A stretch of DNA of 64,000 bases from an uncultured Gemmatimonadaceae bacterium (GCA_963781585.1 CAWAGQ010000009.1:64001-128000); one strand, 5' to 3'. Counted from the stretch's first letter, positions 1 to 61,870 are shown. The notes: generated from the letters alone by a model not told the origin. Numbers and translations: made by a program.

Positions 1-624
1 GCGCGCACGACGATAGAATTTCTGCACCGTCCACGGACCGAGACCGGCGGTGGCGGCTCTGGGGAAGCGTACCGTGTCCCCGGCCAGGTCATACGCTTCT
101 CTCGCGACGATACCCGAGACCTGGTGCTGACCGTGGCCGTCGCGCGGGGTGCCGGTGAAGATTGCCACGATCACGTGGGGGCGGAACGCGCGGACCACGG
201 TAACCACGTCTTGCAGCACGGAATCATGCGGCCACTGTGCGAACGACTCGGCGGCCGACTTGGAGAAGCCGAAATCGTAGGCCCGGCTGAAGAACTGCCT
301 GCCACCGTCGATGCGACGGGCGGCCAGCAACTCCTCGGTGCGAATGGCGCCTAACGACTGGCCGAGTTCGTTGCCGATCAGGTTCTGACCGCCGTCTCCA
401 CGGGTGAGCGACAGGTACGCCGTTTCGACATGGCGGCCGGTGGCCAGCCACGCGATCAGCTGGTTGTCCTCGTCGTCGGGATGGGCGGCGATGACGAGCA
501 CGCGTCCGGACACCGAGAGACCGGACACCAGCTCACCGAGGGCGGCGGCGCCACGCTCCTGGGCCTTACCGGCGCGGCCGAAAACGAGGGAGCAGGCGAT
601 GGCAATGCAGATGCGTCTGTGCAT
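1..624 (-). CDS. PIG-L/LmbE family deacetylase with signal peptide; partial, runs off the window start
   Basis: Not in the ORF track; translated by hand from ATG at 624: MHRRICIAIACSLVFG...RVLVIAAHPDDED...YLSLTRGDGGQNLIGNELG...IRTEELLAARRIDG...AYDFGFSKS...GHGQHQ. Carries the HPDDE metal-binding motif and is open to position 1. Confidence 0.9.
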   Translation of the reverse strand, partial: MHRRICIAIACSLVFGRAGKAQERGAAALGELVSGLSVSGRVLVIAAHPDDEDNQLIAWLATGRHVETAYLSLTRGDGGQNLIGNELGQSLGAIRTEELLAARRIDGGRQFFSRAYDFGFSKSAAESFAQWPHDSVLQDVVTVVRAFRPHVIVAIFTGTPRDGHGQHQVSGIVAREAYDLAGDTVRFPRAATAGLGPWTVQKFYRRAR

Positions 625-627
625 GGT

Positions 628-693
628 GTCGAGTGAGCGTGCGTGAGCGACCGGCTGCGGGTCGAGTGAGCGTGCGTGAGCGACCGGCTGCGG
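628..693. repeat. Perfect 33-bp direct tandem duplication (GTCGAGTGAGCGTGCGTGAGCGACCGGCTGCGG x2)
   Basis: 628-660 is identical to 661-693; lies immediately upstream of the PIG-L start codon. Confidence 0.9.
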
Positions 694-798
694 GCGGTGA
701 CGTCCAAGGCATGGGGCCATGGGCGATCCAACCGGACCCCCATGGACCGCGAGCCCCCAGCCGCGACCGGTTGTTGTGCGACCTCCGGTGAAACGGGT

Positions 799-3552
799 TC
801 AGCGTCCGGCGCCGACCCGCGGAGGCCTGAATCCCGGAATATTCGGCGCGGCCAGCACATCCGCCACAATGCGTGCCTGTTCGGCCTGGTGCACCGTCAC
901 CGACCCTTCCGCCGGGCTGGCCCGCTCGGGGCGGCCGACGTAGCGGATGATCAGGGCGTTCCCCGCCGAGGCCCGCAGTCGCGGAGCAACGTAGCTCCAG
1001 GAACCCATGTTCTTGGGTTCCTCCTGCGCCCACACGATCTCCACCACGTTCGGATACGCGTCCACGACCCGCGACACCTCGTCATGCGGCCAGGGGTACA
1101 GCTCCTCCACACGCGCGACCGCGAGGTGCCTGGGCTTCTCTCCGGCGACCAACTCGTAGTAGAGTTTGCCGGTGCAGAAGACCAGCCGCGTGATGTCGTC
1201 GCGCGCCGGCACTGCGGGGTCGTCGATCACCTGCTGGAATCTCCCCTGCGTGAGGTCCTGGAGGCGTGAGGCCGCCGCCGAGAGCCGAAGCATCGACTTC
1301 GGCTGCATCAGAACCAACGGCCGGCGCACGGGCTCCCAGGCCTGGCGGCGCAGAATGTGAAAGTACTGCGCGGGCGACGTGGGATATGCAACGCGGATAT
1401 TCCCTTCGGCGCACAGCTGGAGGAATCGCTCCAGCCGCGCACTCGAATGCTCGGGGCCCTGCCCTTCGTAACCGTGCGGGAGGAGCAGCACCACCGAGGA
1501 GTCCTGTCCCCACTTCACGGTGTCGGCGGCGATGAACTGGTCGATGACCGGTTGCGCCATGTTGGCGAAGTCCCCGAACTGCGCTTCCCACAGCACCAGG
1601 GCGCCGGGGGTCGCAGTGCTGAAGCCATACTCGAAAGCCAGCACCGCCATTTCGGTGAGCGGACTGTTCCAGACCTCGAACCGGCCACTCGCATCAGGCA
1701 GGTGCTGGAGCGGCGTGTACGCAGCGCCGCTGTCGACGTCGTGGAGCACGGCGTGGCGGTGCGAGAAGGTGCCCCGTTCGGTGTCCTGACCGGTGAGTCG
1801 GACGTCGACCCCCTCGGCCAGCAGAGCTGCAAACGCGAGTGCTTCGGCATGTCCCCAGTCGATATCGGCGTCACCGTGCATGGCCGTGCGGCGCCGCTCG
1901 AGCTGGCGGGCCAGTCGCTCGTGGACGTGGAGATCGGACGGCCAGGTGAGCAGGCGCTCGTTGAGCGAGATCAGCAGCTCGGCGCGCACCGCGGTTTCAT
2001 GGGGGGGCGCCGCGTCGCCGGAACGCGCGCCGTCCGACTCGGGCTCCGGCTCGGGGTGCCGCGCGGCGTGGGCGGCTTCGAGTCGCGCCATCACCGTGCG
2101 TTCCTCCTCCTCGACGTCCTCCTGGGTGATGACGTTCTCGCGCACCAGCCGTTCGGCCCAGATCTGGCGTGCCGGCGGGTGCGCGCGAATGGCGGCGTAC
2201 AGCTTCGGCTGCGTGTAAGCGGGCTCGTCGCCCTCGTTATGCCCCCAGCGTCGGTATCCGACCAGGTCCACCAGGAAGTCCTTGCCGAACTGCTGCCGGT
2301 AGGCGATCCCCAGCCGGACCGCAGTGACGCACGCCTCCGGATCGTCCGCGTTCACGTGCACGATGGGTACTTCGAAGCCTTTCGCCAGATCGCTGGCGTA
2401 GTACGTGGAACGGCCGTCCGCCGGATTGGTTGTGAACCCGATCTGGTTGTTGCAGATGATGTGGAGGGTGCCGCCGACCCGGTAGGCGCGCAACCGCGAC
2501 AGATTGAGCGTCTCGGCTACCACGCCCTCTCCGGGGAACGAGGCGTCGCCGTGGACCAGGACGGGAAGGACCGCATTTTCGTCGCGTTCGGCGCCGGCGG
2601 CCGCGTAGTGCTGCTGCCGGGCGCGGGCCAGTCCGGTGAGGACCGGATTCACCACCTCGAGGTGGCTCGGATTCGGGAGCAGCGTAAGGCGCACGACGTG
2701 TCCGTCGCCCGGGGTGCGCTCGGCCTCGTAGCCGAGGTGGTACTTCACGTCGCCGGTTTCGCTCTCGTCCAGGTCGGCGTGCTTCCCCTCGAACTCGTCG
2801 AAAATGATGCCTAACGGCTTGCCGAGGATGTGCGCCAGCACGTTGATGCGTCCGCGATGGGCCATCCCGATCACCACTTCGCGGGTGCCGCCGAGGGCGG
2901 CATCGTGTATGGCCACGTCGAGCATCGGCACCAGCGCGTCCGTCCCTTCGATCGAGAAGCGCTTCACGTTCACGTAGGTGCGGTGAATGAAACGCTCCAG
3001 TCCGTCCACTTCGGTGAGCCGGCGCAGCAGCGCGCGCTTCTCGTCCGGCGTGAGGAATCGGCGCAACTCCTCGCCCTCGATGATGCGGCGGAACCAGTCG
3101 CGCTCGTCCTCGCTTTCCAGGTGCTCGAACTCGTATCCGAGGCGGGAGGTGTACAGGCGGCGCAGGCGGGCGGCGACATCGGCCGCGGTGCCCATGGCGA
3201 AGCCGAGGGCGGGCGCCGGCACCACGGCGAGGTCCTCTTCGGCGATGCCGTAAAACGCCGGCGCCAGCTCCGCCGCGCCGGTCGGGGCAGATCCCAGCGG
3301 GTCGAGCGGCACCTGAAAGTGTCCGTAGATGCGGATCGCCTCGATGAGCGCCGCCGCGCCGGCGACCCGGCGCAGGTAGGAGACATCGGCCGCGACCGTC
3401 GTGACCGGGGTCGCGCCGCCGGTCAGCATCTCGGCGAAGCGGAAATACTGGCGCCAGCTCTCGTCGACCGACGTCGGATCGCGCCGATACCGGTCGTACA
3501 GATCGGCGATGAATCCGTCGTTGTAGACGCCGGTCACAGGCGGTATGGACAT
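799..3552 (-). CDS. sucA: 2-oxoglutarate dehydrogenase E1 component
   Basis: 917 aa with KRFSIEG, GMAHRGRIN, GDVKYHLG, HGDASFPGEG, NNQIGFTT, GHNEGDEP, WEAQFGDF and HGYEGQGPEHSSARLERFLQL motifs. Confidence 0.97.
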   Translation of the reverse strand: MSIPPVTGVYNDGFIADLYDRYRRDPTSVDESWRQYFRFAEMLTGGATPVTTVAADVSYLRRVAGAAALIEAIRIYGHFQVPLDPLGSAPTGAAELAPAFYGIAEEDLAVVPAPALGFAMGTAADVAARLRRLYTSRLGYEFEHLESEDERDWFRRIIEGEELRRFLTPDEKRALLRRLTEVDGLERFIHRTYVNVKRFSIEGTDALVPMLDVAIHDAALGGTREVVIGMAHRGRINVLAHILGKPLGIIFDEFEGKHADLDESETGDVKYHLGYEAERTPGDGHVVRLTLLPNPSHLEVVNPVLTGLARARQQHYAAAGAERDENAVLPVLVHGDASFPGEGVVAETLNLSRLRAYRVGGTLHIICNNQIGFTTNPADGRSTYYASDLAKGFEVPIVHVNADDPEACVTAVRLGIAYRQQFGKDFLVDLVGYRRWGHNEGDEPAYTQPKLYAAIRAHPPARQIWAERLVRENVITQEDVEEEERTVMARLEAAHAARHPEPEPESDGARSGDAAPPHETAVRAELLISLNERLLTWPSDLHVHERLARQLERRRTAMHGDADIDWGHAEALAFAALLAEGVDVRLTGQDTERGTFSHRHAVLHDVDSGAAYTPLQHLPDASGRFEVWNSPLTEMAVLAFEYGFSTATPGALVLWEAQFGDFANMAQPVIDQFIAADTVKWGQDSSVVLLLPHGYEGQGPEHSSARLERFLQLCAEGNIRVAYPTSPAQYFHILRRQAWEPVRRPLVLMQPKSMLRLSAAASRLQDLTQGRFQQVIDDPAVPARDDITRLVFCTGKLYYELVAGEKPRHLAVARVEELYPWPHDEVSRVVDAYPNVVEIVWAQEEPKNMGSWSYVAPRLRASAGNALIIRYVGRPERASPAEGSVTVHQAEQARIVADVLAAPNIPGFRPPRVGAGR

Positions 3553-3561
3553 GAATGGAAT

Positions 3562-4769: not shown

Positions 4770-5366
4770 ATGGCACAACGTGGACGAACTGACGCGGCTC
4801 AGAGGGAGGGCAGTTCCCTTGCGACGCTGTCATCTCACTGGTTGCCGCGACGCTCCTGGCGCTCACGGTGGGTTCGCACCGCCGGGCGAGCTGCGACCGC
4901 GGCGGCATTGGTGGCCGGCACAGCAGGCTGCGGCGCGATCACCACCGCTGAGGAAGTAGCCGCGGATACCGTGTCGGCGCCGGGGATCGACGTCGTTGCC
5001 GACGGTGGGATCGCGGCGCTCCACACCATGGCACACATCGACAGTGCCACCGGCGCCGCGTACTGGGTGTTCCGGGCCATCTGCGCACCGGCAGTCAATT
5101 GCACCCCCAACGACTCCCTCAACGGCAAGGTGACGGGCAGCCTGGTCGAGAACCTGTATGAGCGCGCCGCGACACCGGAATTCCGCGCTCTGCGACGCGA
5201 CTATGGCGTCACCGTGGGCAGCGCCGACATGCGCGCCTATACGCTGATCATCCGCGCGAACGGGACGTCCCGGACGCTGCGGGCCGACGATGGAACCATG
5301 CCCACTCTGATGGCGCAGTTCGTGAACGATGTGACGCTCGCGGTCAACGACGTGGTGAGGCGTTAG
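4770..5366 (+). CDS. Hypothetical protein, probable lipoprotein
   Basis: SD-like GGGGAG before ATG 4770; hydrophobic stretch ending in a lipobox-like TAGC. Start is uncertain. Confidence 0.6.
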   Translation: MAQRGRTDAAQREGSSLATLSSHWLPRRSWRSRWVRTAGRAATAAALVAGTAGCGAITTAEEVAADTVSAPGIDVVADGGIAALHTMAHIDSATGAAYWVFRAICAPAVNCTPNDSLNGKVTGSLVENLYERAATPEFRALRRDYGVTVGSADMRAYTLIIRANGTSRTLRADDGTMPTLMAQFVNDVTLAVNDVVRR

Positions 5367-5377
5367 GTACCGGCGGA

Positions 5378-5575: not shown

Positions 5576-7879
5576 ATGCCTGTTGCCGACACCTCCGAGC
5601 CCGGTCATCGCCCGTCGTACGGAGCGGCCGCGATCGCGGCCCTGCTCGTGTTCATCCTGTACGTCATCACGCTGGGGCCTTCCACGGCCATGTGGGACAC
5701 GAGCGAGTACATCGTGGCGGCGTACGTGCTGGGGTTGCCGCACCCACCCGGCAATCCGCTGTTCGTGCTGCTGGGCCACGTGTTCACCCTGCTTCCGTTC
5801 GGTGGCAGTCCGGCGGTCCGGGTCAATCTGCTGGCGGCCCTGTGCAGTGCCGTCTCAGCGGGTCTCTGGTTCCTGGTGGCGGAGCACGTGCTCGCACGCT
5901 GGCTCACCCATCGATGGCAGCGGATGGCCGGCGGCGGCCTGGCCGCGCTGCTGGGCGCCACGGCGTTCACCGTCTGGAGTCAGTCGGTGGTGAACGAGAA
6001 GGTGTACACGGTCGCGTTGCTGGGCGTCGCCCTGGTCTCCTGGCTCACAATTCGCTGGATGGACCAGCCCGATGGACGGCGCGGCGACCGCCTGCTTGTG
6101 CTCGTCGCGTACCTGCTGGGACTCGGTTACGCGAACCACATGGCGGGCTTCATCCCGGGACCCGCCGTTGCCACCGCGGTGCTCATTCGGCGTCCGGCCA
6201 CCTTGCGGCGCTGGCGTCTGCTCCTGGCGTGCGTCGGTGCACTGGTGCTCGGTCTCACCCCGTTCGCCACGCAGCCGATCCGGGCGGCGCACTTCCCCGC
6301 CGAGAACGAGGGGGAGCCTACCGGGTGTCGAACCGAATTCCACTGGAACTGCACGTTCAGCGCGCGAACGTGGGATGCATTCAAGTACAACTTCAATCGC
6401 GAACAATTCGGGAAGCCGTCGCTCCTGCAACGACAGGCGCCGATCACGGCGCAGGTCGGCATGTGGTGGACGTACTTCCGCTGGCAGTGGTTCCGCGACG
6501 CGTACGATCGTATGCCCGCAGTGCAGGCCGCGATGGCGGGATTTTTCCTGGTGCTCGGGCTCGTGGGCGCGTGGATACACTGGCAGCGCGACCGGCGCAG
6601 CTTCTGGTATTTCGGGCCGCTGATGGGGACCCTCACGCTGCTGCTGATCGTCTATCTGAACTTCAGGTACGGATACTCGCAGTCGCTCCAACTGGGGAGC
6701 GCGGTGCCGCGTGAAGTGCGCGATCGTGACTACTTCTACCTCTGGAGCTTCTCGGCCTGGAGTGTGTGGGCGGCGCTCGGACTGATGTTCGTCTGGGAGT
6801 CGATCGCCGAACTCGTCACCGGCCTGACTTCGCGGGTCAGCGGTGCGGCGCGGCCGCGGTGGCGCGGATGGGCCGTCGCGGCACCGGTGATCGCAGTTGC
6901 CTTCTTTCCACTCTTCGGCAACTGGTCCGTGGCCACCCGGCACCGCGATACGACCACCCGCGACTTCGCGCACGACATGCTCGATTCGGTGGAGCCGTAC
7001 GGCATCCTGGTGGTGGCCGGTGACAACGACACGTTTCCGCTCTGGTACGCGCAGGAAGTGGAAGGCATTCGCCGCGACGTGGTAGTGGCCAACACCGAAC
7101 TCCTGAACACCGACTGGTACGTGCGGCAGCTGATCAGGATGCCCGTCCGCGAGTACGATGAAGCGAAGGGTCCCGCGATCTACCGCGGGAAGGTCTGGTC
7201 GAGGCCATCGGGGCCGGTCCTGCACATGACGCTCGATGAGGCGGACACGATGCCGCTGATGTACCAGGTACAGGACACGTCGGTGTTCGTCGGACCGGGA
7301 GACATTCGGGCGACGATCACGCCGCGCGTGCTGACGAAGGCGGACGTCGCGGTGTTCCACCTGATCCAGGACAACCCCGATCGGCCGATTTACTTCGGGG
7401 TCACGACGGCCGACTACCCGCAGCAGCTGGGACTGGGCCCGTGGCTGGTGACCCAGGGTCTCGCCCGAAAGCTGGCGCAGCACCGTCCGGTCGCGACGCG
7501 CGACACGGTGCTCGTCGCGGGACAGGGCTTCGTGGACGTCGCGCGCAGCCGCGATCTCTGGCTGGAGGATTCACTGGGACCGCGATCGTTCGACCGGAAG
7601 GGCGGATGGCCCGACCGCGCTTCGCTCAACGTGCCGGTGAGCTATCTCGTCACGGGGCTGCTGCTCACCCAGGTGCTGCATTGGGTGGGGCAGGATTCGG
7701 CGGCCACGGCGGTCCTCGCGCAGTCGAAACGGATCGCCGAGGTCACGCGACTGGCCGATCAGATTGACTTCAAGTCGTACGAGACCCCGTCCCGAGCGCC
7801 CGTTCCGCCTGGCCTCGACTCCGACACCAGGCCAAGGGATTCGGTGCCGGTCGGGCGCGGTAGCCCGCGACAGCGCTGA
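5576..7879 (+). CDS. DUF2723 (TMEM260-like) polytopic membrane protein, putative GT-C glycosyltransferase
   Basis: WDTSEY, LPHPPGNPLF, EVRDRDYFY and GDNDTFPLWYAQEVEG motifs; many transmembrane segments. Confidence 0.85.
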   Translation: MPVADTSEPGHRPSYGAAAIAALLVFILYVITLGPSTAMWDTSEYIVAAYVLGLPHPPGNPLFVLLGHVFTLLPFGGSPAVRVNLLAALCSAVSAGLWFLVAEHVLARWLTHRWQRMAGGGLAALLGATAFTVWSQSVVNEKVYTVALLGVALVSWLTIRWMDQPDGRRGDRLLVLVAYLLGLGYANHMAGFIPGPAVATAVLIRRPATLRRWRLLLACVGALVLGLTPFATQPIRAAHFPAENEGEPTGCRTEFHWNCTFSARTWDAFKYNFNREQFGKPSLLQRQAPITAQVGMWWTYFRWQWFRDAYDRMPAVQAAMAGFFLVLGLVGAWIHWQRDRRSFWYFGPLMGTLTLLLIVYLNFRYGYSQSLQLGSAVPREVRDRDYFYLWSFSAWSVWAALGLMFVWESIAELVTGLTSRVSGAARPRWRGWAVAAPVIAVAFFPLFGNWSVATRHRDTTTRDFAHDMLDSVEPYGILVVAGDNDTFPLWYAQEVEGIRRDVVVANTELLNTDWYVRQLIRMPVREYDEAKGPAIYRGKVWSRPSGPVLHMTLDEADTMPLMYQVQDTSVFVGPGDIRATITPRVLTKADVAVFHLIQDNPDRPIYFGVTTADYPQQLGLGPWLVTQGLARKLAQHRPVATRDTVLVAGQGFVDVARSRDLWLEDSLGPRSFDRKGGWPDRASLNVPVSYLVTGLLLTQVLHWVGQDSAATAVLAQSKRIAEVTRLADQIDFKSYETPSRAPVPPGLDSDTRPRDSVPVGRGSPRQR

Positions 7880-7886: not shown

Positions 7887-9401
7887 TCACCCCTCCACAA
7901 TCGTGCGGATGTCGTCATCGAGGTCGCGGGCGGCACGGCGCCGCGTCACGAACGACACCGCGACGAATACCAGCAGTGACGCCACCAGCGCCAGTGCGGT
8001 CGCGGTGACGCCGGCCGGAAACGTGAACACGCCGAAATGGGCCAGGCTCTCGAAGACGAGAGTCACGACGAGGCCGGTCGACATCGATGCGATTGCGCCG
8101 GACCGGGTACCGCCCGTCCAGTTCATGCCCACGGCCAGCGCCGGCACCAGCGTCGAGGCAAAGAGGCCCCAGCCGAAGATGCCGAGGAACGCAACCAGGG
8201 TGCGCGAGAGTGTGGCCACGAGGGCGGCGACGGCGGCAATGGCAATGGTTGCGACACGCCCCCACAGGAGCTCGTCGCGCACCCGGCGCCCGAGCGCAAC
8301 GGCGAGGTCGTGCGTCACCGCCGCGGCGCCGACGTTGAGAAACGAGTTCACGGTGCTCATGATCGCGGCCGCGACGCCGGCGAACACGATCGCCGCGAGG
8401 GCGAGCGGCGTGTAACCGATCAGGAAGAGCGGCGCGGCATCATCGGGGCGCGCCAGCGCCGGCAGTCCGCCGCGGGCAACCAGCGCCCGGACCACGATGC
8501 CGACGCCGATGAACAGGAGCTGCGCGACGACGATGGCGACCCCGCTGAGGAGGGGATACCACCTGAGCCGACGGGGATCGCGGATCATGTAGAACTTGTG
8601 CAGGACATGGGGTTGCCCGACCGCACCGACGCCGAAGACGAAGTAGAGAGACAGTGCGGCGAGGGGGGTCATTCTGCCCCACGGCGACAGGAAGGCCGGA
8701 TCGACCGGGACGATGGCTCCGGCCGCCCCGCCCAGGCTCGCGCCCACCCGTAACACGTAGGCGAATACCAGCAGCGACGCGACCGCCATGACCGTCCCCT
8801 GAAAGAGATCGGTGTAGACGCCGGCCTTGATGCCGCCCGATGCCGAGTAGGCCAGCGTCACCAGGGTGCCGATCCAGAGGCCTGGCGCGAGTCCGGTGCC
8901 GAAGACGCCGTCGATCACCACGCCTAACGCGAGGACATTGGTGGCCATGTAGCCGACCACCGCCACCAGAATCGCAACCGCCGCCAGTCCCTGCGCGGCG
9001 CGGGACCGATAGCGCGCACCGATCGCATCGGGAATGGTGAACACTCCGCGCGCGTCGGCGAGCAGGCGAAGCCGGGTCCCCAGCGTCCACCCCACCAGCG
9101 ACGACGTGACGGCCACCGGCAGCACGATGAAGGCGGCGCCGAGTCCCTCCGCATAGACGAGCCCCGGACCGCCGATGAACGAGAAGCCCGAGATGGTGGC
9201 CGCCATGGCGGCGATCGACATCGTCCAGATGCCGAGCTGCTTTCCCGCCAGGAAGAAGTCGCCGGCAGTGCGGGTACGCCGAGTGGCCCAGACCGCAATC
9301 GCGGCCACCACCGCAAAGTAGCCAAGCGAGACGCCCGCGATGACCGGTCGCGAAAGCGCCGGCAGCGTCGTCGCCTGGACGGCCAGAAGCCCGGTCAGCA
9401 C
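7887..9401 (-). CDS. Sodium:solute symporter (SSS family, PutP/PanF-like)
   Basis: DFFLAGK, SGFSFIGGPG, TIPDAIGARY, YTDLFQG, GQPHVL and AAIMSTVNS motifs; about 13 TM helices. Confidence 0.88.
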   Translation of the reverse strand: MLTGLLAVQATTLPALSRPVIAGVSLGYFAVVAAIAVWATRRTRTAGDFFLAGKQLGIWTMSIAAMAATISGFSFIGGPGLVYAEGLGAAFIVLPVAVTSSLVGWTLGTRLRLLADARGVFTIPDAIGARYRSRAAQGLAAVAILVAVVGYMATNVLALGVVIDGVFGTGLAPGLWIGTLVTLAYSASGGIKAGVYTDLFQGTVMAVASLLVFAYVLRVGASLGGAAGAIVPVDPAFLSPWGRMTPLAALSLYFVFGVGAVGQPHVLHKFYMIRDPRRLRWYPLLSGVAIVVAQLLFIGVGIVVRALVARGGLPALARPDDAAPLFLIGYTPLALAAIVFAGVAAAIMSTVNSFLNVGAAAVTHDLAVALGRRVRDELLWGRVATIAIAAVAALVATLSRTLVAFLGIFGWGLFASTLVPALAVGMNWTGGTRSGAIASMSTGLVVTLVFESLAHFGVFTFPAGVTATALALVASLLVFVAVSFVTRRRAARDLDDDIRTIVEG

Positions 9402-24832: not shown

Positions 24833-25032
24833 CCGGCGCGGCGACGTTCCCGGGGGGAAGGGTTCCGACACCATCGCCGGGCCTCGTCGCGAGTCGGGCG
24901 CGACCGGTTCGCGAGGAGCGCTCGGGTGGCGCGACCGCCGCTCGCCACGCCTTCCCTTTGGCGACGGTCTCTCTGCACTATTCGAGCACGGCGCGTGCCA
25001 CGCGGTGCCCGCCCCAACGCGGAGCGGTTGTC

Positions 25033-32193: not shown

Positions 32194-32202
32194 CGCGCCA
32201 CG

Positions 32203-35101: not shown

Positions 35102-35209
35102 GCCTGAACGATCGCGCCCAGGCGAGCGCCCCGGAAGGTTGCGGCCATCGACGAAACGGTTCGGCGGCGTACGTTGTCGAACCCACAGCGCTCACCCGGA
35201 GCCCTCGCG

Positions 35210-51948: not shown

Positions 51949-53055
51949 ATGTTTCCCGCCCTCTTCCGCCGCCCGCAAGTGGCCCGCGCGCTTGCATTTG
52001 TCGCCCTTCCCCTGGGTGCGATTCCGCTCGTCGGCATAGCCGTCGCGGGGCCGCTCCGCGCGGCGTTCGGCACGCCCGCGCATATCGAGGCGCCACACGC
52101 CGTGCTCGTGAACGTACCGGGCCACGGCACCGCCTCGGCGAACCTCTCCCTCGACTCGCTCGCCGGTCGGAGCGGCAATGTCCGCGTCCGGCTGCTCACG
52201 CGCGACGAGGTGGACTTCTATCCCGGGCTGACCGACCGCCTCGGCGAAGCGGTGCGCACGCCGGGGATCCGCACGGTCCCCTTCCGCACCGACGGGAGTC
52301 AGTTCGCGTTCATCACGCTCACGCCGTGGCATGACAAGCGGGGCACTTTCATCAATACGTACCACGTGGGGTGGTGGCCGGGCGAACGGCAGCTGATGCC
52401 CGCCAACTACGACAACCCCGCCGGATTCATCGAGGTCCGGCCTAACGACGTGGACCTGCGGATCTCCACCCACTTCACGCTCCGCGACTTCATCACTCAC
52501 GACCAGGACAACGTCTGGCCGAAGTACGTGGTGCTCCGCGAAGACCTGCTCGACAAGCTCGAGCTGGTGCTGGCCACGCTGGAAGCGCAAGGCGTCCAGA
52601 CGCGGCACGTGGTCGTGCTCTCGGGATTCCGGTCGCCGCAGTACAACGCGCGCGCGGTGATCGAGGGGGCGGCCTACGCGAGCCGGCACCAGTACGGCGA
52701 TGCCGCCGACGTGATCATCGACGCCGACGGCGACGGCCGGATGGACGACCTCAATCACGACGGCATCGTGAACTTCCGCGATACCGACGTGATCAATCGC
52801 GCGGTCGAGCGCGTGGAGCGCGCCTATCCGGACCTGGTGGGCGGGCTCGGCCTCTATCAGGCGACGGGCCCGCGCGGTCCATTCGCCCACATCGACGTGC
52901 GCGGCACCCGCGCCCGGTGGACGAACAGCGCGGCGGTAGCGCGCGCGCCGAGCGACCAGTGGAACTTCAACTCGGGCTACAATGCCCAGAGCCCGGCCGT
53001 AGGCAAGTGCAAGGCCGAGGGCGCGTTCGCCGCGCTCTGTTCGTCGAATCGTTAG
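51949..53055 (+). CDS. Peptidase M15A (D-Ala-D-Ala carboxypeptidase-like) metallohydrolase
   Basis: HFTLRDF, SGFRSPQYN, SRHQYGDAAD and FAHIDVRG motifs. Confidence 0.88.
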   Translation: MFPALFRRPQVARALAFVALPLGAIPLVGIAVAGPLRAAFGTPAHIEAPHAVLVNVPGHGTASANLSLDSLAGRSGNVRVRLLTRDEVDFYPGLTDRLGEAVRTPGIRTVPFRTDGSQFAFITLTPWHDKRGTFINTYHVGWWPGERQLMPANYDNPAGFIEVRPNDVDLRISTHFTLRDFITHDQDNVWPKYVVLREDLLDKLELVLATLEAQGVQTRHVVVLSGFRSPQYNARAVIEGAAYASRHQYGDAADVIIDADGDGRMDDLNHDGIVNFRDTDVINRAVERVERAYPDLVGGLGLYQATGPRGPFAHIDVRGTRARWTNSAAVARAPSDQWNFNSGYNAQSPAVGKCKAEGAFAALCSSNR

Positions 53056-53281
53056 GCACCCACACAAAACCCAGGCCTCACCGCCCCCGGGGTGACCTCC
53101 CCGGCGCGAGCTTTCGCCCGAGAGACGCGGGCGCGGGCATGCAGCGGAGCCAGCGGTCGCAGCCGGTCGCCATCGCCTCGCATCCGAAGGCGGCCGGGCC
53201 GTCCGTCGTCCGGCCGCGGCCGTCTTGTGACTCCGCGCGGGCGCGGTACATTGGCGGCACACGCTGCCTGTACGAGGCCCC

Positions 53282-53971: not shown

Positions 53972-55571
53972 CCGCTCGCGTGATCGAGACTGACGTCTGC
54001 ATCGTCGGCTCCGGAATCACTGCTGCCATGGTGGCCGAGAAACTCGCCGACGAGCGGAATGCCCATATTCTGGTCGTCGAGGCCGGGTGACGAGATGCCG
54101 CCGCTGGCGGAGTGGTACAAGCTGCGCGAGCGGTCACTCGAGTACGGCGAGAGCCCGTGGCCGCACGATCACATCGACGACATGCAGGCCGAGGGGCCCC
54201 TGCAGTCGCGATCGATGTGCGTGGGCGGCCTGGCCATGCACTGGGGCGGCGTGACCCCGCGGTTCAGTCCCGAGGATTTCAAGACCCAGTCGTTATGCGG
54301 CGTTGGCGCCGACTGGCCGATCAGCTACGACGACCTCGAGCCCCACTATCACGAGGCCGAAGTGCGTCTGGGCGTGGCCGGTGAGGCGGGTCCCGCGGAC
54401 ATCGATCCGCGACGCGATCCGTTCCCGATGCCGATGCTGCCGCTCACGTACAACCTCGAGAAGCTCAAGGGGTGGGCGGCGTCGGCGGGCATTCCGATGT
54501 GGAGCCAGCCGTCGGCGAAGAACTCGGTGCCCTATCGGGGACGGAGCCCCTGTTGCCGGAACGACACCTGCACGCCGATCTGTCCGGTGGGGGCGAAGTA
54601 TTCGCCGGACGCCACGTGGCGAGCCCTCCGGTCGTCGGGGCGTGTGACGCTCATGACGCGCACACTCGTGAGGCGCCTGACGCCGGCCGTCCGGCAGCGA
54701 CCGGATCGAATCGGCGCAGGCCGTGCAGCGCGACCGGCCGGCCGAGCCGCTGGAGATCAGGGCGAAGACGTTTGTGGTGGCCGGCGGATATGTCTGGAGC
54801 TCCCACTTGCTGCTGCTGTCGACCAGCTCCCGGTTCCCCGATGGCCTCGCCAATCGCTCGGGGCTGGTCGGGAAGTATCTCACCGGCCACCGCAACGTGC
54901 AGGGGTACATCGCGCTCCCGATGAAGCTGTATCCGGGGATCAACGGGCAGCACTCGCTGGTGACCAGGCATTTCATGCGGAAACCGCGATACGACCGATA
55001 TCTCCGGCACGACCTGCGGGTGTGGGAGTCGTCATCGGGGCGCGAGGCGCGTCTTCGCGACGACACCGGCGCGCTGATGCTCGGCGACGCGATCCTCACC
55101 GATTGGCGCGAACGGACGCGCACGGGCGTGGCGCGCGTGCGCTGCTACTACGACGTGATCCCGGCGCGCGAGAGCGAGCTCACGCTGGATGCCGGGAAGA
55201 AGAATGCATGGGGCGATCCGCTTCCGAAGCTCTCGTGGCAGGATTCGGAGACGTCGCGCGACCTCAGGGCCTGGAGCGAGGAGCAGGTCCGGGCGCTCTT
55301 CGCGACGATGGCGCGCGCCGGAAACGGGCAGGTGCTGCGGACGGCGAGCGACCGGTTCCAGGATCATCCGGCGGGCGGGTGCCGGATGGGGGACGACGCG
55401 GCAACCAGTGTGGTGGATTCACACGGCCGGAGCCACGATCATGAGAATCTGTTCGTGGTAGGGGCGCCGACGTCGGTGAGCGGAAGCTGCGCGAACGCGA
55501 CGTTGACGTTCTGCGCGCTGTCGCTCCGCGCGGCGGGCGAGGTGGGGCGGGGGTACGGGGCCAAGGGATAG
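53968..55571 (+). pseudogene. GMC family oxidoreductase interrupted by two +1 frameshifts (about 54087 and 54685); pseudogene or assembly error
   Basis: First frame: DVCIVGSG..ILVVEAG then TGA at 54088. Second frame: VGGLAMHWGG, DWPISYDDLEPHY, C..C..ICPVGAKY. Third frame: GLANRSGLVGKYL, HPAGGCRMG, SVVD..GRSHDHENLFV, NATLT. Confidence 0.88.
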
Positions 55572-55580
55572 GCATAGGAA

Positions 55581-55671
55581 AGGCCAAAGGCCATAGGCCA
55601 AAGGCCAAAGGCCAAAGGCCAAAGGCCAAAGGCCAAAGGCCAAAGGCCAAAGGCCAAAGGCCAAAGGCCAA
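55581..55671. repeat. Near-perfect (AGGCCAA)13 tandem repeat
   Basis: 13 units counted, one AGGCCAT variant. Confidence 0.97.
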
Positions 55672-55722
55672 AGTCAGATGAATCACCGTTAACCATTGTC
55701 AACTGCCAACCGGCTCCTCACC

Positions 55723-56979
55723 ATGTTCATTCTCCCTGTCTGTCGCGCCGCTGCGGTGATGCTTGGCGCCGTCCTGATCGCGGCACCGACCGCGGCCCAA
55801 TCGCCCACCATTGCCCTCACTGCCGCCCGGGTCGTCGATGGGGCCGGACACGTCATCCCGAACGGCGTGGTGCTCGTCACGGGCGACCGCATAACGAGCG
55901 TGGGGCCGCGTGCCAGGCAGAGCGGCACGGTGTACGACCTCGGCGACGCCACGATCATGCCCGGCCTGATCGACACCCACGACCACATCGTCTGGTACTT
56001 CAATGCCAAGGGGCGGTACCACACCGGCGATGACGGCGAGACTCCTGTTCAGGGAATGCTCGCCGCCGCGGGCAATGCGTGGGTCACGCTCATGGGCGGC
56101 GTCACCACGCTCCAGAGCCCCGGCGCCGCGCAGGACAAGGATCTTCGCGACGCGATCGCACGTGGCGAGATCCCCGGTCCCCGCATCCTCACGTCGCTCG
56201 GCTCGCTCAGCGAGCGGAGCGGGACGCCGGACCAGCTCCGCGAACGCATCCGCCAGTTCAAGGAGCGCGGGGCGGACTTCATCAAGCTGTTCGCGTCCAA
56301 GAGCATCCGGGACGGCGGCGACCAGACGATGACCGACGAACAGCTCCAGGCCGCCTGCGGCGAGGCCAAGTCGTTAGGACTGCGGACGCTCGTTCACGCC
56401 CACGCGGCGGCGGCGGTGAAGGCGGCGGTGCTTGCCGGGTGCACGTCGATCGAGCACGGCGTGTTCGTCACCCCCGAGGTGCTCCAGCTCATGGCGCAGC
56501 GCGGCACGTACTTCGACCCGCAGTGCGGGCTCGTCTTCCGGAACTACCTCGACAACCGCGCCAAGTACGAGGGCATCGGCAACTATAATGAAGAGGGCTT
56601 CGCGTACATGGAGAAGGCGATCCCCCTCGCCACCGAGGCGATCAGGAAGGCGCTCGCCATACCAGGCCTCAAGGTCATCTTCGGGACCGATGCCGTGGCC
56701 GGAGCGCATGGACGTAACGTGGAGGACCTCATCTGCCGCGTGAACGAGGCCGGACAGAAGCCGCTCGACGCGATCACGTCCGCCACCGGGCTCGCCGCCC
56801 AGTCGATGCAGCTCTCCGATTCACTCGGCACGCTGGCACCCAACAAGATTGCCGACATCATCGCGGTGGCTGGGAATCCGCTGGCCGATTTCACGGCGAT
56901 GCGCCACGTGATGTTCGTGATGAAGGGCGGGATCATCTACAAGAACGTGAAGGCCGCGGACGCGATGGGCGGGCGATGA
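55723..56979 (+). CDS. Secreted amidohydrolase family protein
   Basis: PGLIDTHDH, FIKLF, VHAH, IEHG, FGTD and ADIIAVAGNPL motifs. Confidence 0.92.
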   Translation: MFILPVCRAAAVMLGAVLIAAPTAAQSPTIALTAARVVDGAGHVIPNGVVLVTGDRITSVGPRARQSGTVYDLGDATIMPGLIDTHDHIVWYFNAKGRYHTGDDGETPVQGMLAAAGNAWVTLMGGVTTLQSPGAAQDKDLRDAIARGEIPGPRILTSLGSLSERSGTPDQLRERIRQFKERGADFIKLFASKSIRDGGDQTMTDEQLQAACGEAKSLGLRTLVHAHAAAAVKAAVLAGCTSIEHGVFVTPEVLQLMAQRGTYFDPQCGLVFRNYLDNRAKYEGIGNYNEEGFAYMEKAIPLATEAIRKALAIPGLKVIFGTDAVAGAHGRNVEDLICRVNEAGQKPLDAITSATGLAAQSMQLSDSLGTLAPNKIADIIAVAGNPLADFTAMRHVMFVMKGGIIYKNVKAADAMGGR

Positions 56980-58943
56980 GCATCTGGAGCGCGGTCGCGC
57001 CGCCGCTCGCGCTCGCCTGGCTCGCGGCGTGCGTCTTCGGCGCGCCGCTCCCCGCGCAGAGCACATCGCCGCTGGTGGAGTGGCCCACCTATGGCGGCGA
57101 CGCGGGCGGGATGAAGTACTCCCCGCTCACCGACGTCAATCGCGGTAACGTCGCGCGCCTGGCGCCGGCGTGGTCGTGGGCCACCGGCGAGAACGCCATC
57201 CGCGAGACCGACTCCACGCGCGCGGCGCGGCCGGGGAATTTCCAGGCCACGCCGCTCATGATCGACGACACGCTCTACCTGAGCACGCCGTTCAACCGCG
57301 TGGTCGCATTGGATGCCAATACCGGTCGCGAGATCTGGAGCTACGATCCGGGGGCGTACCGCGCGGGCCAGCCGTCCAATGGGACGGGGCTGGTGCATCG
57401 CGGCGTCGCCGCGTGGACCGACGGACGTGAGCGCCGGATCTTCATGAACAGCCGGTGGCGGCTCATCGCGCTCGACGCATCAACCGGAAGACCGATCGCC
57501 TCGTTCGGCACCAACGGCGAGATCGACCTCACCGCCAGGCTGCCGCGCCCGGTCAACAAGCTCCATTACACCAACACGTCGCCGCCGGTGATCTGGGGCG
57601 ATCTCGTGATCGTCGGCAACGGCGTGGGCGACCGCCTGACCTACCGCGACGATCCGCCGGGCGACGTCCAGGCGTTCGACGTCCACACGGGCCGGCAAGC
57701 CTGGATCTTCCACACGGTGCCGAGGCCGGGCGAGTTCGGGAATGAGACGTGGGCGGATTCATCGTGGAATTTCACCGGGCACACCAACGTCTGGGCGCCG
57801 TTCACGGTGGACAGCGCGCGGGGGCTGGTCTTTCTGCCGGTGAGCACGCCCAGCAACGACTGGTACGGAGGCCGTCGGCTGGGGGCCGGGCTGTTCGGGG
57901 AGTCGCTGGTCTGCCTCGACGCGCGGACGGGAAAGCGCGTCTGGCATTTCCAGGTGACCCATCACGGGCTCTGGGACTACGACCTGCCAGCGCCGCCTAA
58001 CGTCATAACGATCCGGCGCGGCGCCGAGCGGGTGGACGCGGTGGTCGCGCCCACCAAGCAGGGGTTCATCTTCGTCTTCGATCGGCTCACCGGGAAGCCG
58101 CTCTGGCCGGTGGAGGAGCGCGCGGTTCCGCGGAGCGACGTGCCGGGTGAGCAGGCGTGGCCCACGCAGCCGTTTCCCACCAGGCCGCCGCCGGTGGCGC
58201 CGCAGGGGTTCACCGACGCCGACGTGGTCGATTTCACTCCGGCCATCCGCGACTCGGCGCTGGCCCTCGTCCACCTGTATCGCATGGGACCGGTTTTCAC
58301 GCCGCCGTCGCTCGAAGGGACGATCGTCGTCCCGGGGGTGATCGGCGGTGTGGGCTGGGGCGGTGCGGCCTACGACCCTGAGACCAGCACCCTATACGTG
58401 AAGGCGTCGAATTCGCCAGCGTTCATGCGGCTGGTCAAGCGCGACGCGCCGTCGGATACGGTCGACGCTGATTACATGCTCGACCTCGCGAACTCGTCGT
58501 TGAGCCTGCGTTTTCCCGCACCGCCGGGGGAACCATCGGGAGGACGAGTGCCGCCGCTTCCGATCATCAAGCCGCCGTATGGCACGCTGACCGCGATCGA
58601 TCTTGCCACCGGCACGTTCCGCTGGCAGGTGCCGGTGGGCGATACGCCGCAGCTGCGAGATCATCCCGCCCTGCGCGGGGTGACCCTTCCCAAGGCGTTA
58701 GGCGTGTCGGGGTCACCCGGAGCGATGGTCACACGCGGCGGACTCGTCTTCGTGTCCGGCGGAGGAAACGTACTCTACGCCATCGACGCGCAGAACGGGC
58801 ATAACTTGTGGGAGTACGACTTGGGACAACGGGCCTACGCCAATCCGATGACGTACCGGACGCGCGCCGGCCGGCAGTTCGTGGTCATCGCCAGCGGCGC
58901 CGGGTCGAACGCGACCCTGCGCGCGTTCGCGCTGGCGCCGTAG
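56976..58943 (+). CDS. PQQ-dependent dehydrogenase (quinoprotein glucose dehydrogenase-like, no N-terminal TM block)
   Basis: WPTYGGD, FQATPL, RGVA, TSPP, NVW, HHGLWDYD, WPTQPFP, KPPYG and ANPMTY motifs. Confidence 0.93.
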   Translation: MSIWSAVAPPLALAWLAACVFGAPLPAQSTSPLVEWPTYGGDAGGMKYSPLTDVNRGNVARLAPAWSWATGENAIRETDSTRAARPGNFQATPLMIDDTLYLSTPFNRVVALDANTGREIWSYDPGAYRAGQPSNGTGLVHRGVAAWTDGRERRIFMNSRWRLIALDASTGRPIASFGTNGEIDLTARLPRPVNKLHYTNTSPPVIWGDLVIVGNGVGDRLTYRDDPPGDVQAFDVHTGRQAWIFHTVPRPGEFGNETWADSSWNFTGHTNVWAPFTVDSARGLVFLPVSTPSNDWYGGRRLGAGLFGESLVCLDARTGKRVWHFQVTHHGLWDYDLPAPPNVITIRRGAERVDAVVAPTKQGFIFVFDRLTGKPLWPVEERAVPRSDVPGEQAWPTQPFPTRPPPVAPQGFTDADVVDFTPAIRDSALALVHLYRMGPVFTPPSLEGTIVVPGVIGGVGWGGAAYDPETSTLYVKASNSPAFMRLVKRDAPSDTVDADYMLDLANSSLSLRFPAPPGEPSGGRVPPLPIIKPPYGTLTAIDLATGTFRWQVPVGDTPQLRDHPALRGVTLPKALGVSGSPGAMVTRGGLVFVSGGGNVLYAIDAQNGHNLWEYDLGQRAYANPMTYRTRAGRQFVVIASGAGSNATLRAFALAP

Positions 58944-59341: not shown

Positions 59342-59386
59342 CGCCGGTCGCGCATGGGACGTCCCCATTCGAACGGAGGATATCCC

Positions 59387-60751
59387 ATGCGCATTCCGGC
59401 CTCGCCGCGCGGGTCGCTCGCTGCCGCTCTGGCCGGGGCAGCGATTGTGGCCGTTTTCGTCGGGACGCCATTGCTCGGCGCGCAAGCGCCCGCGCGGCAG
59501 ACGCAGGCGGATGACTACACGCGCTACGAGCTGCTCGCGCCGGGGTCGGCCAGGTTCCGGATTCTGTATGAGGTAACGGCGACGACGCCGGGGGCCACGG
59601 CGTTCTTCAACGCCATTCGTCGTGGCAGCGTGGCGAGCGACGAGGCCGTGTACGATCGGATGACCGCCGCCAGGCTGCGGTTCGAGGTGGTGAACGGGAC
59701 CGTGGCGCGCGCCGGTGGCGTGCGCGGCGCGGATTCCACGGGCGAGTACATCATGGTGCATCTCGCCCGACCGGTCCCCGACAGCGGCGAGGCGCGGCTC
59801 CTGATCGAGAAGACGTACGAGGACGCAACCAGTTACCTGGTCCGGGGCGACACGATCGTTTTCACCCGCCCGTTAGGCATCAAGCGGAATGCGGTGGTGC
59901 TCCCGGCGGGGTACGAGCTCCTGAGCGTGAACTATCCGTCGCAGGTCCGCACCGAGCCGGACGGAAGGCTGGCGGTGAGCTTCATCAACACCAGCCCGGC
60001 GCAGGTGCCGTACACCGTTCGCGCGCGCTGTGCGAGGAGGGTGCCGGCGGGAGCGCCCTGTCCTGCGCCGGCGGCGCCTTCGGCCGGTCGCGGTGCCGGA
60101 GCCGCGGCGAGCGGCGCGTCGCCGCCAACCACCCCGGCGGCTCAACCGGGGAACGCGGCCGCGGCCACCCCGGAAACGCGGTCACGCGCATCCCGGCTTT
60201 CCGAGCGCGCGCATCAGGACCGGGAAATCGTCTACTTCCTGCAGCAGCCCGAGACCCACGCATTCGATCTCTATCACGACTACACCGAGTCGCGTCCGGG
60301 GGTGGACAAGTACATCAACGTGGTGCGGGCGGGGAGCGCGGTTTCGCGCCCGTCGGCGCGGATCCTCGATACCGGCGAGTCGCTGCCTCACGAGATCCTG
60401 CGCGGGGCGCAGATCACGGCCGCGAAGGTCGACATCGGTGAGCCGGTGACGCCGGGCAGCGAGGTGGTGGTGATCCGCTTCCCGGCGGTGAAGGCGGGTC
60501 AGTCGATCCGGCTGCGGATCAGCGAGACATATTCGGACGCGGCGCGCTACCGGCTCGAGGGCGACGAGCTGGTGTGGGACCGGTCGTTCGGCCGTCCGGC
60601 GAACGCGATGGTGTTGCCGGCGGGGTGGTCGCTCACCAACTGCTCGATTCCGGCGACGGTGTCGATGACCGAGGATGGGCGGGTGCGGCTCGACTTCATC
60701 AATCCGCGGAACGATGAGATTGCGGTGCTGGTGACGGCGCGGCGGCGGTGA
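59387..60751 (+). CDS. Hypothetical secreted protein made of two homologous beta-rich domains
   Basis: Signal peptide; repeated NA(V/M)VLPAG...DGR...FIN blocks separated by a Pro/Ala linker. Confidence 0.8.
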   Translation: MRIPASPRGSLAAALAGAAIVAVFVGTPLLGAQAPARQTQADDYTRYELLAPGSARFRILYEVTATTPGATAFFNAIRRGSVASDEAVYDRMTAARLRFEVVNGTVARAGGVRGADSTGEYIMVHLARPVPDSGEARLLIEKTYEDATSYLVRGDTIVFTRPLGIKRNAVVLPAGYELLSVNYPSQVRTEPDGRLAVSFINTSPAQVPYTVRARCARRVPAGAPCPAPAAPSAGRGAGAAASGASPPTTPAAQPGNAAAATPETRSRASRLSERAHQDREIVYFLQQPETHAFDLYHDYTESRPGVDKYINVVRAGSAVSRPSARILDTGESLPHEILRGAQITAAKVDIGEPVTPGSEVVVIRFPAVKAGQSIRLRISETYSDAARYRLEGDELVWDRSFGRPANAMVLPAGWSLTNCSIPATVSMTEDGRVRLDFINPRNDEIAVLVTARRR

Positions 60752-60833
60752 GGGCCGCGGCTCACGCTCCCGATGCGAACACCACAACACGCCATCGCTG
60801 GCGGTTGGGCGCAGGCGCGCGATGCTCCCGAAC

Positions 60834-61870
60834 TCACTGAGAGGGAAGCAGAAACCGTTCGAGATGCTCCAGATCATCTGCGTCACGGCGCGCGACATAG
60901 ACGTGGCCGGTGCCGAATCCAACGACCCGCGTGTTCGCAGGGAAGGTCACGCGCTGCACCAGTTGGCCCGAGTCGCCAATGACATCGTAGAGCGGACGCT
61001 TACCAGGCACGACGGTTCGTTTGACCCATAGTCTACCGTCCTCCGCGAACATGGCGGCCTTGTCGAGAAAGGGCGGAAGGAATGGCGGCCAGGACCGCGG
61101 CTCCCGGTACGGTGGCGTCTGGAGGGTCGCGGAAGAGCCACCATCCCGCTGGACACTCAGTGTTGGGCCGCGCTCGTTGCGCGCATCACGCCATTCCTGC
61201 TTCACTCGTTCGTCGACCTTTATCGGTAGAAACTGCATCGGACTCCCGTCATGACGCGCGCCGGTTGTCCCCACGATGTCCACCCGGTACGGTTCCGGTC
61301 GCACGATGGCTACACGACCATCGCGGCGAACGGCCCACAGCGTGGTCGCCGCAAATGGGGGCACCACATAACCGGGAGCGGCCGCGACAATTCCTGAACC
61401 AATTACTCGACTTCCCGGTCCGAATCGGTTAGGAATGAACGCCACGGTATCGGCCTGGCAGGTCGAGGTCCAACGCTCGATGGCCGCAGAATCGGTCGCC
61501 AGTAGGCCCTCACGCTCACTCCTGGCAGTGGGCGCCGCCTCAGAATAAAGCCGACCCTTCGCGTCCGCTGCGACAAACACCGATGACCAGGTCGTCACTG
61601 CTCCGGGACAGTCGCGACCGCTGCGGTCCGGCAAGAATCCGCCCGCCGATCCCGTTAACTCACCCCGTTAGGCTGTACAGAAAAGCGGAGCCACTTCTCG
61701 AAGACACTTCCGTCTCCGAGTGCGCGGACTTGCGTGATGCGGGTGAACGATCCTTGGAACTCGGCTTCGACATGATCGACCTCGGCCGTCGGAGTCGACT
61801 GCGCCGCGACATCCTTCGTCAGCATCACCTCAAGAACGCCCAGGATCAGGGACGTGAGCATAATCCGCAT
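60834..61870 (-). pseudogene. Fragmented secreted beta-propeller-like protein (N-fragment 61655-61870, C-fragment 60834-about 61570)
   Basis: Signal peptide plus FTRITQVRALGDG, then a stop. The C-part has DAKGRLY, WAV..DGRVAIVRPEPYRVD, DGRLWV and VYVARRDADDLEHLERF. The middle appears deleted. Confidence 0.6.

Follow-up and report, generated by a model that had tools for sequence, protein, structure and literature searches.

Copies of the word in the window

The 64-kb stretch of DNA analysed here (the window) comes from an uncultured Gemmatimonadaceae bacterium (GCA_963781585.1, CAWAGQ010000009.1:64001-128000). Its genes, called with a codon model trained on long open reading frames (ORFs) of high GC at third codon positions and compared with Pfam, are those of an ordinary Gemmatimonadaceae chromosome and include SucA, an RlmL-like methyltransferase, a TMEM260-like protein, two MacB/FtsX 'duplicated' permeases, M28 peptidases, CarboxypepD_reg proteins and a pyrroloquinoline quinone (PQQ) dehydrogenase. 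GC content is 62-69% along the whole length. In and between these genes recurs the heptamer CGTTAGG, which the original prediction had put forward as an undescribed genome-wide recognition site. It is found 26 times, 17 times on the + strand and 9 times (as CCTAACG) on the - strand, and 22 of the 26 copies extend to the octamer CGTTAGGC/GCCTAACG (14 on +, 8 on -). Our recount agrees with the predicted 22 octamers, and all 26 predicted heptamer coordinates and orientations are exact.

These counts are far above chance. Dinucleotide-preserving shuffles (n = 100) yield a mean of 2.85 heptamers (maximum 8) and 0.73 copies of CGTTAGGC (maximum 3); none of the 100 reaches 26 or 22, respectively. The 2-3 chance octamers estimated by hand in the original prediction were too many. 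An order-3 Markov model expects 0.78 copies (z = 24). A Markov model of maximal order (order 6) does not flag CGTTAGGC. We rejected this null as a test: the sub-words (27 GTTAGG, 26 CGTTAG and 23 TTAGGC) occur almost exclusively within CGTTAGGC, so the model absorbs the signal and provides no valid refutation.

Twelve of the 26 copies lie in sense orientation as xCG-TTA-GGn. On the - strand they are located in a PIG-L-like deacetylase gene (1-624, -; copy at 349-356, TCG-TTA-GGC = S-L-G), in the gene for SucA (2-oxoglutarate dehydrogenase E1, 799-3537, -; 2809-2816, CCG-TTA-GGC = P-L-G), in a sodium:solute symporter gene (7887-9401, -; 8922-8929, GCG-TTA-GGC) and, as the heptamer-only CGTTAGG(T), in an ORF at 40055-40561 (-; 40284-40290, TCG-TTA-GGT). 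Those on the + strand occupy genes for an outer-membrane efflux protein (17463-18797, +; 18142-18149, ACG-TTA-GGC), an ABC-2 permease (21929-23050, +; 22740-22747, TCG-TTA-GGC), the two MacB/FtsX-like permeases (29224-31674, +; 30164-30171, and 35210-37768, +; 37503-37510; both GCG-TTA-GGC), an amidohydrolase (55756-56979, +; heptamer-only CGTTAGG(A) at 56372-56378, TCG-TTA-GGA) and the PQQ-dependent dehydrogenase (56976-58943, +; 58696-58703, GCG-TTA-GGC), as well as ORFs 26363-27484 (+; 26904-26911, GCG-TTA-GGC) and 59447-60751 (+; 59871-59878, CCG-TTA-GGC).

Nine copies are antisense, (G)CCT-AAC-G. This frame is seen on the + strand in a molybdopterin oxidoreductase gene (10750-11748, -; 10920-10927, CCT-AAC-GAG = P-N-E), twice in an M28 peptidase gene (37772-39523, -; heptamer-only CGTTAGG(G) at 39067-39073, CCT-AAC-GCC, and CGTTAGGC at 39322-39329, CCT-AAC-GTG) and in an epimerase/DUF1731 gene (45743-46651, -; 45955-45962, CCT-AAC-GCC). 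On the - strand it is seen in ORF 25005-26444 (+, coding frame by codon score; 25721-25728, CCT-AAC-GTG), a further M28 peptidase gene (48654-50162, +; 49475-49482, CCT-AAC-GCG), ORF 51949-53055 (+; 52440-52447, CCT-AAC-GAC) and the PQQ dehydrogenase gene (57995-58002, CCT-AAC-GTC). The + strand copy at 61666-61673 falls in a weakly supported small ORF (61655-61870, -) or is intergenic. Two antisense + strand copies have the frame TGC-CTA-ACG and occupy matching signal-peptide positions in a tandem pair of paralogues with CarboxypepD_reg domains: at 44095-44102 in the N-terminal region of the first (43363-44172, -) and at 44919-44926, the equivalent position, in the second (44187-44972, -).

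Three copies sit on stop codons. The heptamer-only CGTTAGG(T) at 5361-5367 (+) and the octamer at 53050-53057 (+) supply CGT-TAG to ORFs 4971-5366 (+) and 51949-53055 (+). The octamer at 27988-27995 (-) carries both stops of the convergent ORFs 27613-27993 (+, GCC-TAA) and 27990-28787 (-, CGT-TAG), which overlap by 4 nt. The gene calls thus bear out the several coding contexts of the original prediction (x-Leu-Gly, Pro-Asn, Cys-Leu-Thr and stops). Twelve of the 16 TTA codons in called genes, which hold 1,832 Leu codons in total, fall within the word, a share that the original prediction had left to be determined. CCT-AAC accounts for 8 of 26 Pro-Asn pairs in called genes, though CCT makes up just 55 of about 1,000 Pro codons.

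Two side observations concern the ground on which these copies lie. Between 25005 and 27484 the long ORFs 25005-26444 and 25733-27484 overlap, and neither matches Pfam; the codon score favours the former until about 26360 and the latter beyond, as with overlapping genes or a frameshift. One of the two longest stretches of the window devoid of the main word (30171-37503) contains an Xre-like antitoxin and RES-domain toxin pair (31777-32652).

Distribution, conservation and spacing in related genomes

Relatives were collected with the TMEM260-like protein (5576-7876) as a query against genome contigs. The 80 loci returned (designated by L numbers) all belong to Gemmatimonadota, mostly to Gemmatimonadaceae metagenome-assembled genomes (MAGs) of many projects, at 45-71% amino-acid identity. 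The window's own genome is not among them; our data on it amount to 64 kb, and those on relatives to loci of at most 22 kb. CGTTAGGC occurs in 23 of the 80 loci (173 copies), and 57 have none. Copy numbers reach 28 in 22 kb (L033), 19 in 22 kb (L009), 16 in 20 kb (L071), 16 in 14 kb (L043), 14 in 12 kb (L011) and 8 in 4.7 kb (L025), and in independent MAGs of one clade the density is 2-17 per 10 kb.

In a FastTree phylogeny of the query protein (74 rows; the six short proteins of L012, L014, L021, L037, L058 and L079 were omitted), the carriers group into a clade of 18 rows, one of them the window (Shimodaira-Hasegawa-like support 97), and a trio, L009-L011, that stands apart on the unresolved base of the tree. 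Membership of all carriers in one clade is compatible with an approximately unbiased (AU) test on a 39-row IQ-TREE (p-AU 0.107); this is no proof, as the group was named after the tree had been viewed, and the tree is that of one membrane protein and not of species. Three loci inside the carrier clade, L024 (22 kb), L044 and L048, have no CGTTAGGC. GC-matched loci outside the clade, chosen without regard to the word, hold 2 copies in 651,147 nt, a rate that predicts about 0.2 for the window, as compared with 168 copies in 236,345 nt of the 14 word-rich sources. The excess of CGTTAGGC in the window is about 30-fold over shuffles and roughly 100-fold or more over GC-matched relatives. The word is lineage-specific, and the enrichment elsewhere that the original prediction called for is found in loci of related genomes from independent assemblies.

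We further found that CGTTAGGC is conserved beyond its surroundings. In pairwise nucleotide alignments, conservation extends to 58 of 71 sites versus 34% of control 8-mers where identity is at least 84%, and to 46 of 87 versus 20% at 78-84% identity; below 72% the excess has faded (7% versus 8%). These pairs are ordered, not independent, and were measured between relatives only. Where four-codon contexts are identical in amino acids, 37 of 46 sites in four phylogenetically separate pairs are also identical in nucleotides, versus 37.8% of 51,299 control 8-mers (Fisher's test, p 4.6e-9, shared sites counted twice). Conditional on amino-acid identity, the word is thus conserved at synonymous sites of orthologues, as the original prediction required. 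An orthologous test of the window's own sites was set aside, the 80 loci being syntenic with it at the query gene alone, which has no site in the window.

For the analysis of sites we pooled 21 sources (191 copies of CGTTAGGC in 336 kb), excluding L018 (2 sites), L032 and L070 (1 each). About 80% of the copies are within genes, in frame: 74 as xCG-TTA-GGC, 40 as xxG-CCT-AAC-G, 20 as xGC-CTA-ACG and 16 as xxC-GTT-AGG-C. Another 33 are intergenic and 8 lie on gene edges or stops. In a codon alignment of the query gene, carriers write TTA-GGC, GTT-AGG or CTA-ACG at conserved A-L-G, V-R and L-T positions, at which relatives have CTC/CTG-GGC or GTC-CGC; a single A-A-L-G-L position bears the word in L062, L033, L025, L010 and L011 and near-words in L048, L034 and L043. 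The word is thus spelled by the rare synonymous codons TTA, CCT, CTA and AGG at conserved amino-acid positions. Between 15 and 79% of synonymous opportunities are used: in the L033 group 14 of 36 [ASPT]-L-G, 15 of 19 P-N-[VADEG] (heptamer) and 12 of 26 [SRGC]-L-T, and in the window 10 of 68 [ASPT]-L-G and 7 of 17 P-N-[VADEG].

A coding-level cause, be it a favoured peptide, a codon pair or TTA-based translational control, could account for the concentration of TTA codons in the word and for the two frames that prevail in the window. It would hardly produce copies in both orientations, in all four open frames, on stops and in intergenic DNA, nor explain why relatives encode the same amino acids with common codons. 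Moreover, shuffling synonymous codons (n = 500) in a way that preserves every protein and pooled codon usage leaves 0.53 copies of CGTTAGGC in coding sequence (maximum 4), versus 17 observed. This ratio of about 32 under a codon-aware null, a test named beforehand, sustains the original view that the word acts at the DNA level, independently of frame, and is not a peptide motif. We consider a coding-level origin highly improbable. As a side observation, sites in the pooled word-rich loci are commonest in the middle fifth of genes (quintiles 21, 29, 47, 24 and 27), perhaps a consequence of typical gene length together with evenly spaced sites, or of truncated gene starts.

The surroundings of the copies share nothing. 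Alignment of the 26 window copies shows no conserved flank past the eighth base, and in the pool no flanking position exceeds 47% for any base. Given the dissimilar flanks in the window, CGTTAGGC is a bare word and not a repeat element. Copy number alone would suggest remnants of a dispersed mobile or repeat element, or an artefact of assembly or contamination. Such an origin is the least credible that we considered, since copies stand in frame within conserved genes and the word recurs in MAGs of independent projects. Repetitive extragenic palindromic (REP) and miniature inverted-repeat transposable element (MITE) types of repeat differ from it in having conserved extended sequence or structure and in being mostly extragenic.

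Orientation bears on another class of signals. Chi and the polar segregation words KOPS (FtsK orienting polar sequences) and AIMS (architecture imparting sequences) are likewise over-represented 8-mers in genes, but their orientation strongly follows that of replication. A polar signal of this type, for recombination or segregation, would be compatible with an over-represented 8-mer at about 1 per 3 kb and with the window's 14:8 ratio and positive cumulative GC skew. However, strand counts fit 1:1 in all ten sources with at least 8 copies, taken from loci of up to 22 kb and the 64-kb window (heterogeneity chi2 8.6, 10 degrees of freedom, p 0.57), and the major-orientation fraction of 0.59 is at chance level. 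Loci with all genes on one strand show ratios of 11:8, 10:4 and 6:10; the first is L009, with 20 kb of genes on one strand. A polar signal is thus very improbable. The 17:9 ratio from which the original prediction argued against strict polarity is weak by itself, and the ten sources now confirm the point.

The copies are also spaced more evenly than expected. The coefficients of variation (CV) of gap length in 8 sources sum to 5.53 versus 7.31 for random placement, and none of 5000 simulations is as low. Close pairs are scarce: gaps below 150 nt number 1 of 170 versus 19.5 expected, and gaps below 300 nt 20 versus 36.6. The single close pair is inverted and found in L033. Overall, the word is a DNA-level, clade-specific and positively maintained one, read either way and counted per stretch rather than per site.

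Variants of CGTTAGGC that differ at one position are partly enriched as well. In the word-rich pool versus the unconditioned background, one-off variants at positions 1, 4, 6 and 8 are over-represented: TGTTAGGC (15 versus 0.9), CGTCAGGC (69 versus 17), CGTTATGC (12 versus 0.5), CGTTAGGT (25 versus 0.5) and CGTTAGGG (9 versus 0.9). No enrichment is seen for G>A variants at positions 2, 6 and 7 (1 each in the pool, background expectations all below 1), although the change at position 2 is synonymous in both main frames. The pattern looks like a recognition logo rather than neutral decay.

Two of these variants are abundant in the window. CGTTATGC has 8 copies versus 0.1 expected, all preceded by T and 6 of them in the form CTCGTTATGC. 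The weaker CGTCAGGC has 25 copies versus 4.7 by background expectation, 11 of them within the 10-mer TCGTCAGGCG (0.25 expected). CTCGTTATGC is confined to the window's sublineage, being found outside the window in L035 (2 copies), L048, L026 and L042; the 651-kb background has none. The L009 group and L024, the latter devoid of the main word, are likewise rich in CGTCAGGC; in the L033 and L074 groups it is much less enriched, at roughly twice background. Small counts and one gene tree suggest that the enriched side-word, (T)CGTCAGGC(G) or CTCGTTATGC, differs by lineage. These related words, the even spacing, the few close pairs and the restriction to a clade are additions to the original prediction.

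The variants bear on a further possibility, namely that a site-specific DNA methyltransferase, coupled to biased mismatch repair of the very-short-patch kind, turns near-words into the word, which would itself be functionless and its excess a side effect. G>A variants at positions 2, 6 and 7 lack the enrichment of other transitions, which fits restoration of bottom-strand C, and the highly iterated palindrome HIP1 of cyanobacteria is recognised by methylases (PMC13756078). The expectations for the supposedly depleted variants are all below 1, so that depletion cannot be shown. A local drive would act on each near-site separately and predicts neither mutual avoidance (1 of 170 gaps versus 19.5) nor evenness; a purely local mutational drive is disfavoured because the sites avoid one another. 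The excess is roughly hundredfold or more, the word is a contiguous non-palindromic 8-mer, and at least two changes, including a transversion, lead from CTC-GGC to it. We regard this origin as improbable.

A candidate uptake or self-recognition sequence

The properties of CGTTAGGC recall the DNA uptake sequences (DUS) and uptake signal sequences (USS) of naturally transformable bacteria. Like these, it is a short non-palindromic word present in both orientations without chromosomal polarity (PMC1939737), in coding and non-coding DNA and in several frames, at about 1 copy per kb in the densest genomes. It is fairly evenly spaced (PMC7811141) and conserved in a lineage, its one-off variants are partly enriched, and related variants may differ by lineage in the manner of 'dialects' (PMC3630211). 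We tentatively favour, at somewhat less than even confidence, the view that CGTTAGGC serves in uptake or self-recognition as DUS and USS do, its copies accumulating through molecular drive. Four features recommend it: the word is orientation-free, present in ORFs and fairly even, as described for uptake sequences (PMC1939737); an even distribution is expected from uptake-driven molecular drive (PMC7811141); dialects track phylogeny in Neisseriaceae (PMC3630211); and the trait is labile among close relatives. With slightly more reserve, we suggest that a Gemmatimonadaceae clade may possess a sequence-specific system for DNA uptake or self-recognition, in which CGTTAGGC is the clade's own 8-bp tag and dialects evolve.

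Under this proposal, a sequence-specific reader protein would recognise CGTTAGGC in one Gemmatimonadaceae clade. Within genes and between them, and in both orientations, a copy would be maintained about every 0.6-3 kb. The DNA receptor used in natural transformation would favour fragments bearing the word, and these would recombine into the chromosome. Mutations that make or improve copies would be over-transmitted, and copies retained until each stretch of DNA holds about one, rare synonymous codons spelling the word where amino acids allow. Shifts in reader specificity could have given rise to the lineage side-words (T)CGTCAGGC(G) and CTCGTTATGC, and loss of the reader to word-free sublineages.

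Several differences from DUS and USS have to be set beside these likenesses. The word occurs in Gemmatimonadota (uncultured MAGs from soil, freshwater and sediment), is unrelated in sequence, and is 8 bp long with no flank consensus. It contains A and T in genomes of 62-71% GC, where every frame needs rare codons, whereas the frames of USS track preferred codons (PMC2817400). There is no clear non-coding excess, and there are almost no inverted pairs.

A number of points weigh against the uptake proposal. DUS and USS are longer than this word, which lacks extended flanks. Published accounts of uptake sequences describe a deficit in coding sequence or a surplus in non-coding DNA (PMC7811141, PMC1939737), and the 33 intergenic and 8 edge copies among 191 are about proportional to the non-coding share of pooled DNA (about 19.5% by crude gene calls), the density being about equal inside and outside genes. 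Just one close inverted pair was found. The word-rich pool was picked after counts had been seen. In the window taken alone, the evenness of the main word is marginal (P 0.07), as is that of the word combination A+C (P 0.04). The union of the three words in the window is not even (CV 0.96-1.04, P 0.48-0.74; circular shifts 0.43), so that no replacement of the main word by the side-words is apparent. We only infer that the reader is part of a DNA-uptake system, that its bearers are competent and that their uptake is biased. Neither com or pilin genes nor a candidate reader were seen among the Pfam-checked genes of the 64-kb window. Finally, conservation and regular spacing are equally reported for HIP1, with a proposed role in the nucleoid (PMC5861425).

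This last point leads to the main rival, in which the word is bound or marked inside the cell, for instance by a protein that structures the nucleoid, or serves as a signal in strand discrimination or repair. Such a signal must be reachable from every stretch of DNA, as in the role in chromosome structure once proposed for HIP1. Conservation above the synonymous level, regular spacing, avoidance of close pairs and independence of orientation all fit, and like evidence was used for HIP1 (PMC5861425). HIP1 (GCGATCGC) resembles CGTTAGGC in further respects: it is a hyper-abundant octamer that exceeds expectation 15- to 300-fold, its conservation within and between ORFs goes beyond codon effects, its one-off variants are weakly conserved, and it has lineage variants and a non-random distribution (PMC5861425). 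Unlike the asymmetric CGTTAGGC, HIP1 is a palindrome recognised by known methylases, and its periodicity is 10-90 kb, as opposed to short-range avoidance (<150-300 nt) and kb-scale evenness here. On the other side stands lability: relatives differ in density between 0 and 17 per 10 kb, and three loci within the clade, L024, L044 and L048, hold none, a pattern that suits a dispensable drive better than a core chromosomal function. No candidate reader for such a signal was seen in the window either, and HIP1 itself has recently been proposed to act in DNA uptake and transformation (PMC13756078). We consider an intracellular signal unlikely, although it deserves more weight than the other alternatives.

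In open full texts, supplements excluded, we found no description of the word or of an uptake-like sequence in Gemmatimonadota. The raw word turns up in 478 papers, and the 25 matches listed among them are all primers or unrelated sequences; 'gemmatimon' is never joined with the word in either orientation, nor 'Gemmatimonadetes' with 'uptake sequence'. To our knowledge, the only demonstrations of sequence-specific DNA uptake come from two proteobacterial families, and we know of no sequence-specific uptake or self-recognition system outside Proteobacteria, save the current proposal for HIP1. The word shows the genomic hallmarks of an uptake sequence in a different phylum, one that is largely uncultured and globally abundant in soil, which suggests that self-tagging of DNA is more widespread than thought. 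If the uptake proposal is true, the tag would identify conspecific DNA in soil, shape recombination barriers among abundant soil bacteria and offer a handle for transforming them. As an 8-bp probe it could be used in a search for the reader by phylogenetic profiling, in tests of uptake bias, in the study of recombination barriers in metagenomes and in binning or classifying Gemmatimonadaceae contigs, possibly with better genetic tractability as a result. Were the function intracellular instead, the word would represent a new type of chromosomal signal with even spacing.

Positions of related words and other sequence features

Of the eight copies of CGTTATGC in the window, six have the form CTCGTTATGC. 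This lies antisense in SucA (2235-2242, +), sense in an ABC ATPase gene (20380-20387, +, TCG-TTA-TGC) and in a MacB-like permease gene (31443-31450, +, CTC-GTT-ATG-C), antisense (33478-33485, +) and sense (33783-33790, -, CGT-TAT-GCG) in a GH31 gene, and antisense in the amidohydrolase gene (55889-55896, -). The form TTCGTTATGC is sense in a solute-binding protein gene (40824-40831, -), and GTCGTTATGC is in the 5' part of a GMC oxidoreductase region (54291-54298, +). The 25 copies of CGTCAGGC are spread from 11928 to 54682, 12 on + and 13 on -, in every reading frame. They start at 11928, 19906, 20910, 22173, 25882, 26398, 27885, 28093, 32737, 33881, 34931, 36348, 37533, 38308, 38602, 42997, 44346, 45458, 45995, 46662, 46945, 47059, 47855, 50612 and 54675.

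We also looked for different words in other clades among the top 8-mers of the other loci, and rejected nearly all of these candidates as local tandem arrays with 7-14-nt units. CACGGGCA is dispersed and not tandem in L073 and L064, of a clade without CGTTAGGC, with 11 copies in 16 kb of L073 versus 1.5 under an order-3 Markov model, and 8 in L064. It may be the word of another lineage or a coding effect.

An intergenic tandem array of this kind, AAAGGCC x13.6, lies in the window at 55579-55673, between the GMC oxidoreductase and amidohydrolase genes. Similar intergenic arrays, with units of 7 nt and in some cases 8-14 nt that differ per genome, occur in relatives: L030 (7852-7921), L054 (13585-13660 and 7917-7960), L035 (7120-7260), L056 (15076-15115 and 16458-16480), L040 (13435-13490), L020 (11183-11300), L066 (11019-11470) and L060 (16294-17240). 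In several relatives two arrays are inverted to each other, about 80-700 nt apart. They appear to be a family-wide kind of microsatellite.

The adjoining GMC-family oxidoreductase region (54059-55571) changes its coding frame from +1 (54100-54550) to +2 (54700-55450), and the Pfam domain GMC_oxred_C matches its C-terminal part only; it is probably a frameshifted gene or a sequence error. At the other end of the window, positions 628-694 form a perfect 33-bp tandem duplication (2.0 copies).

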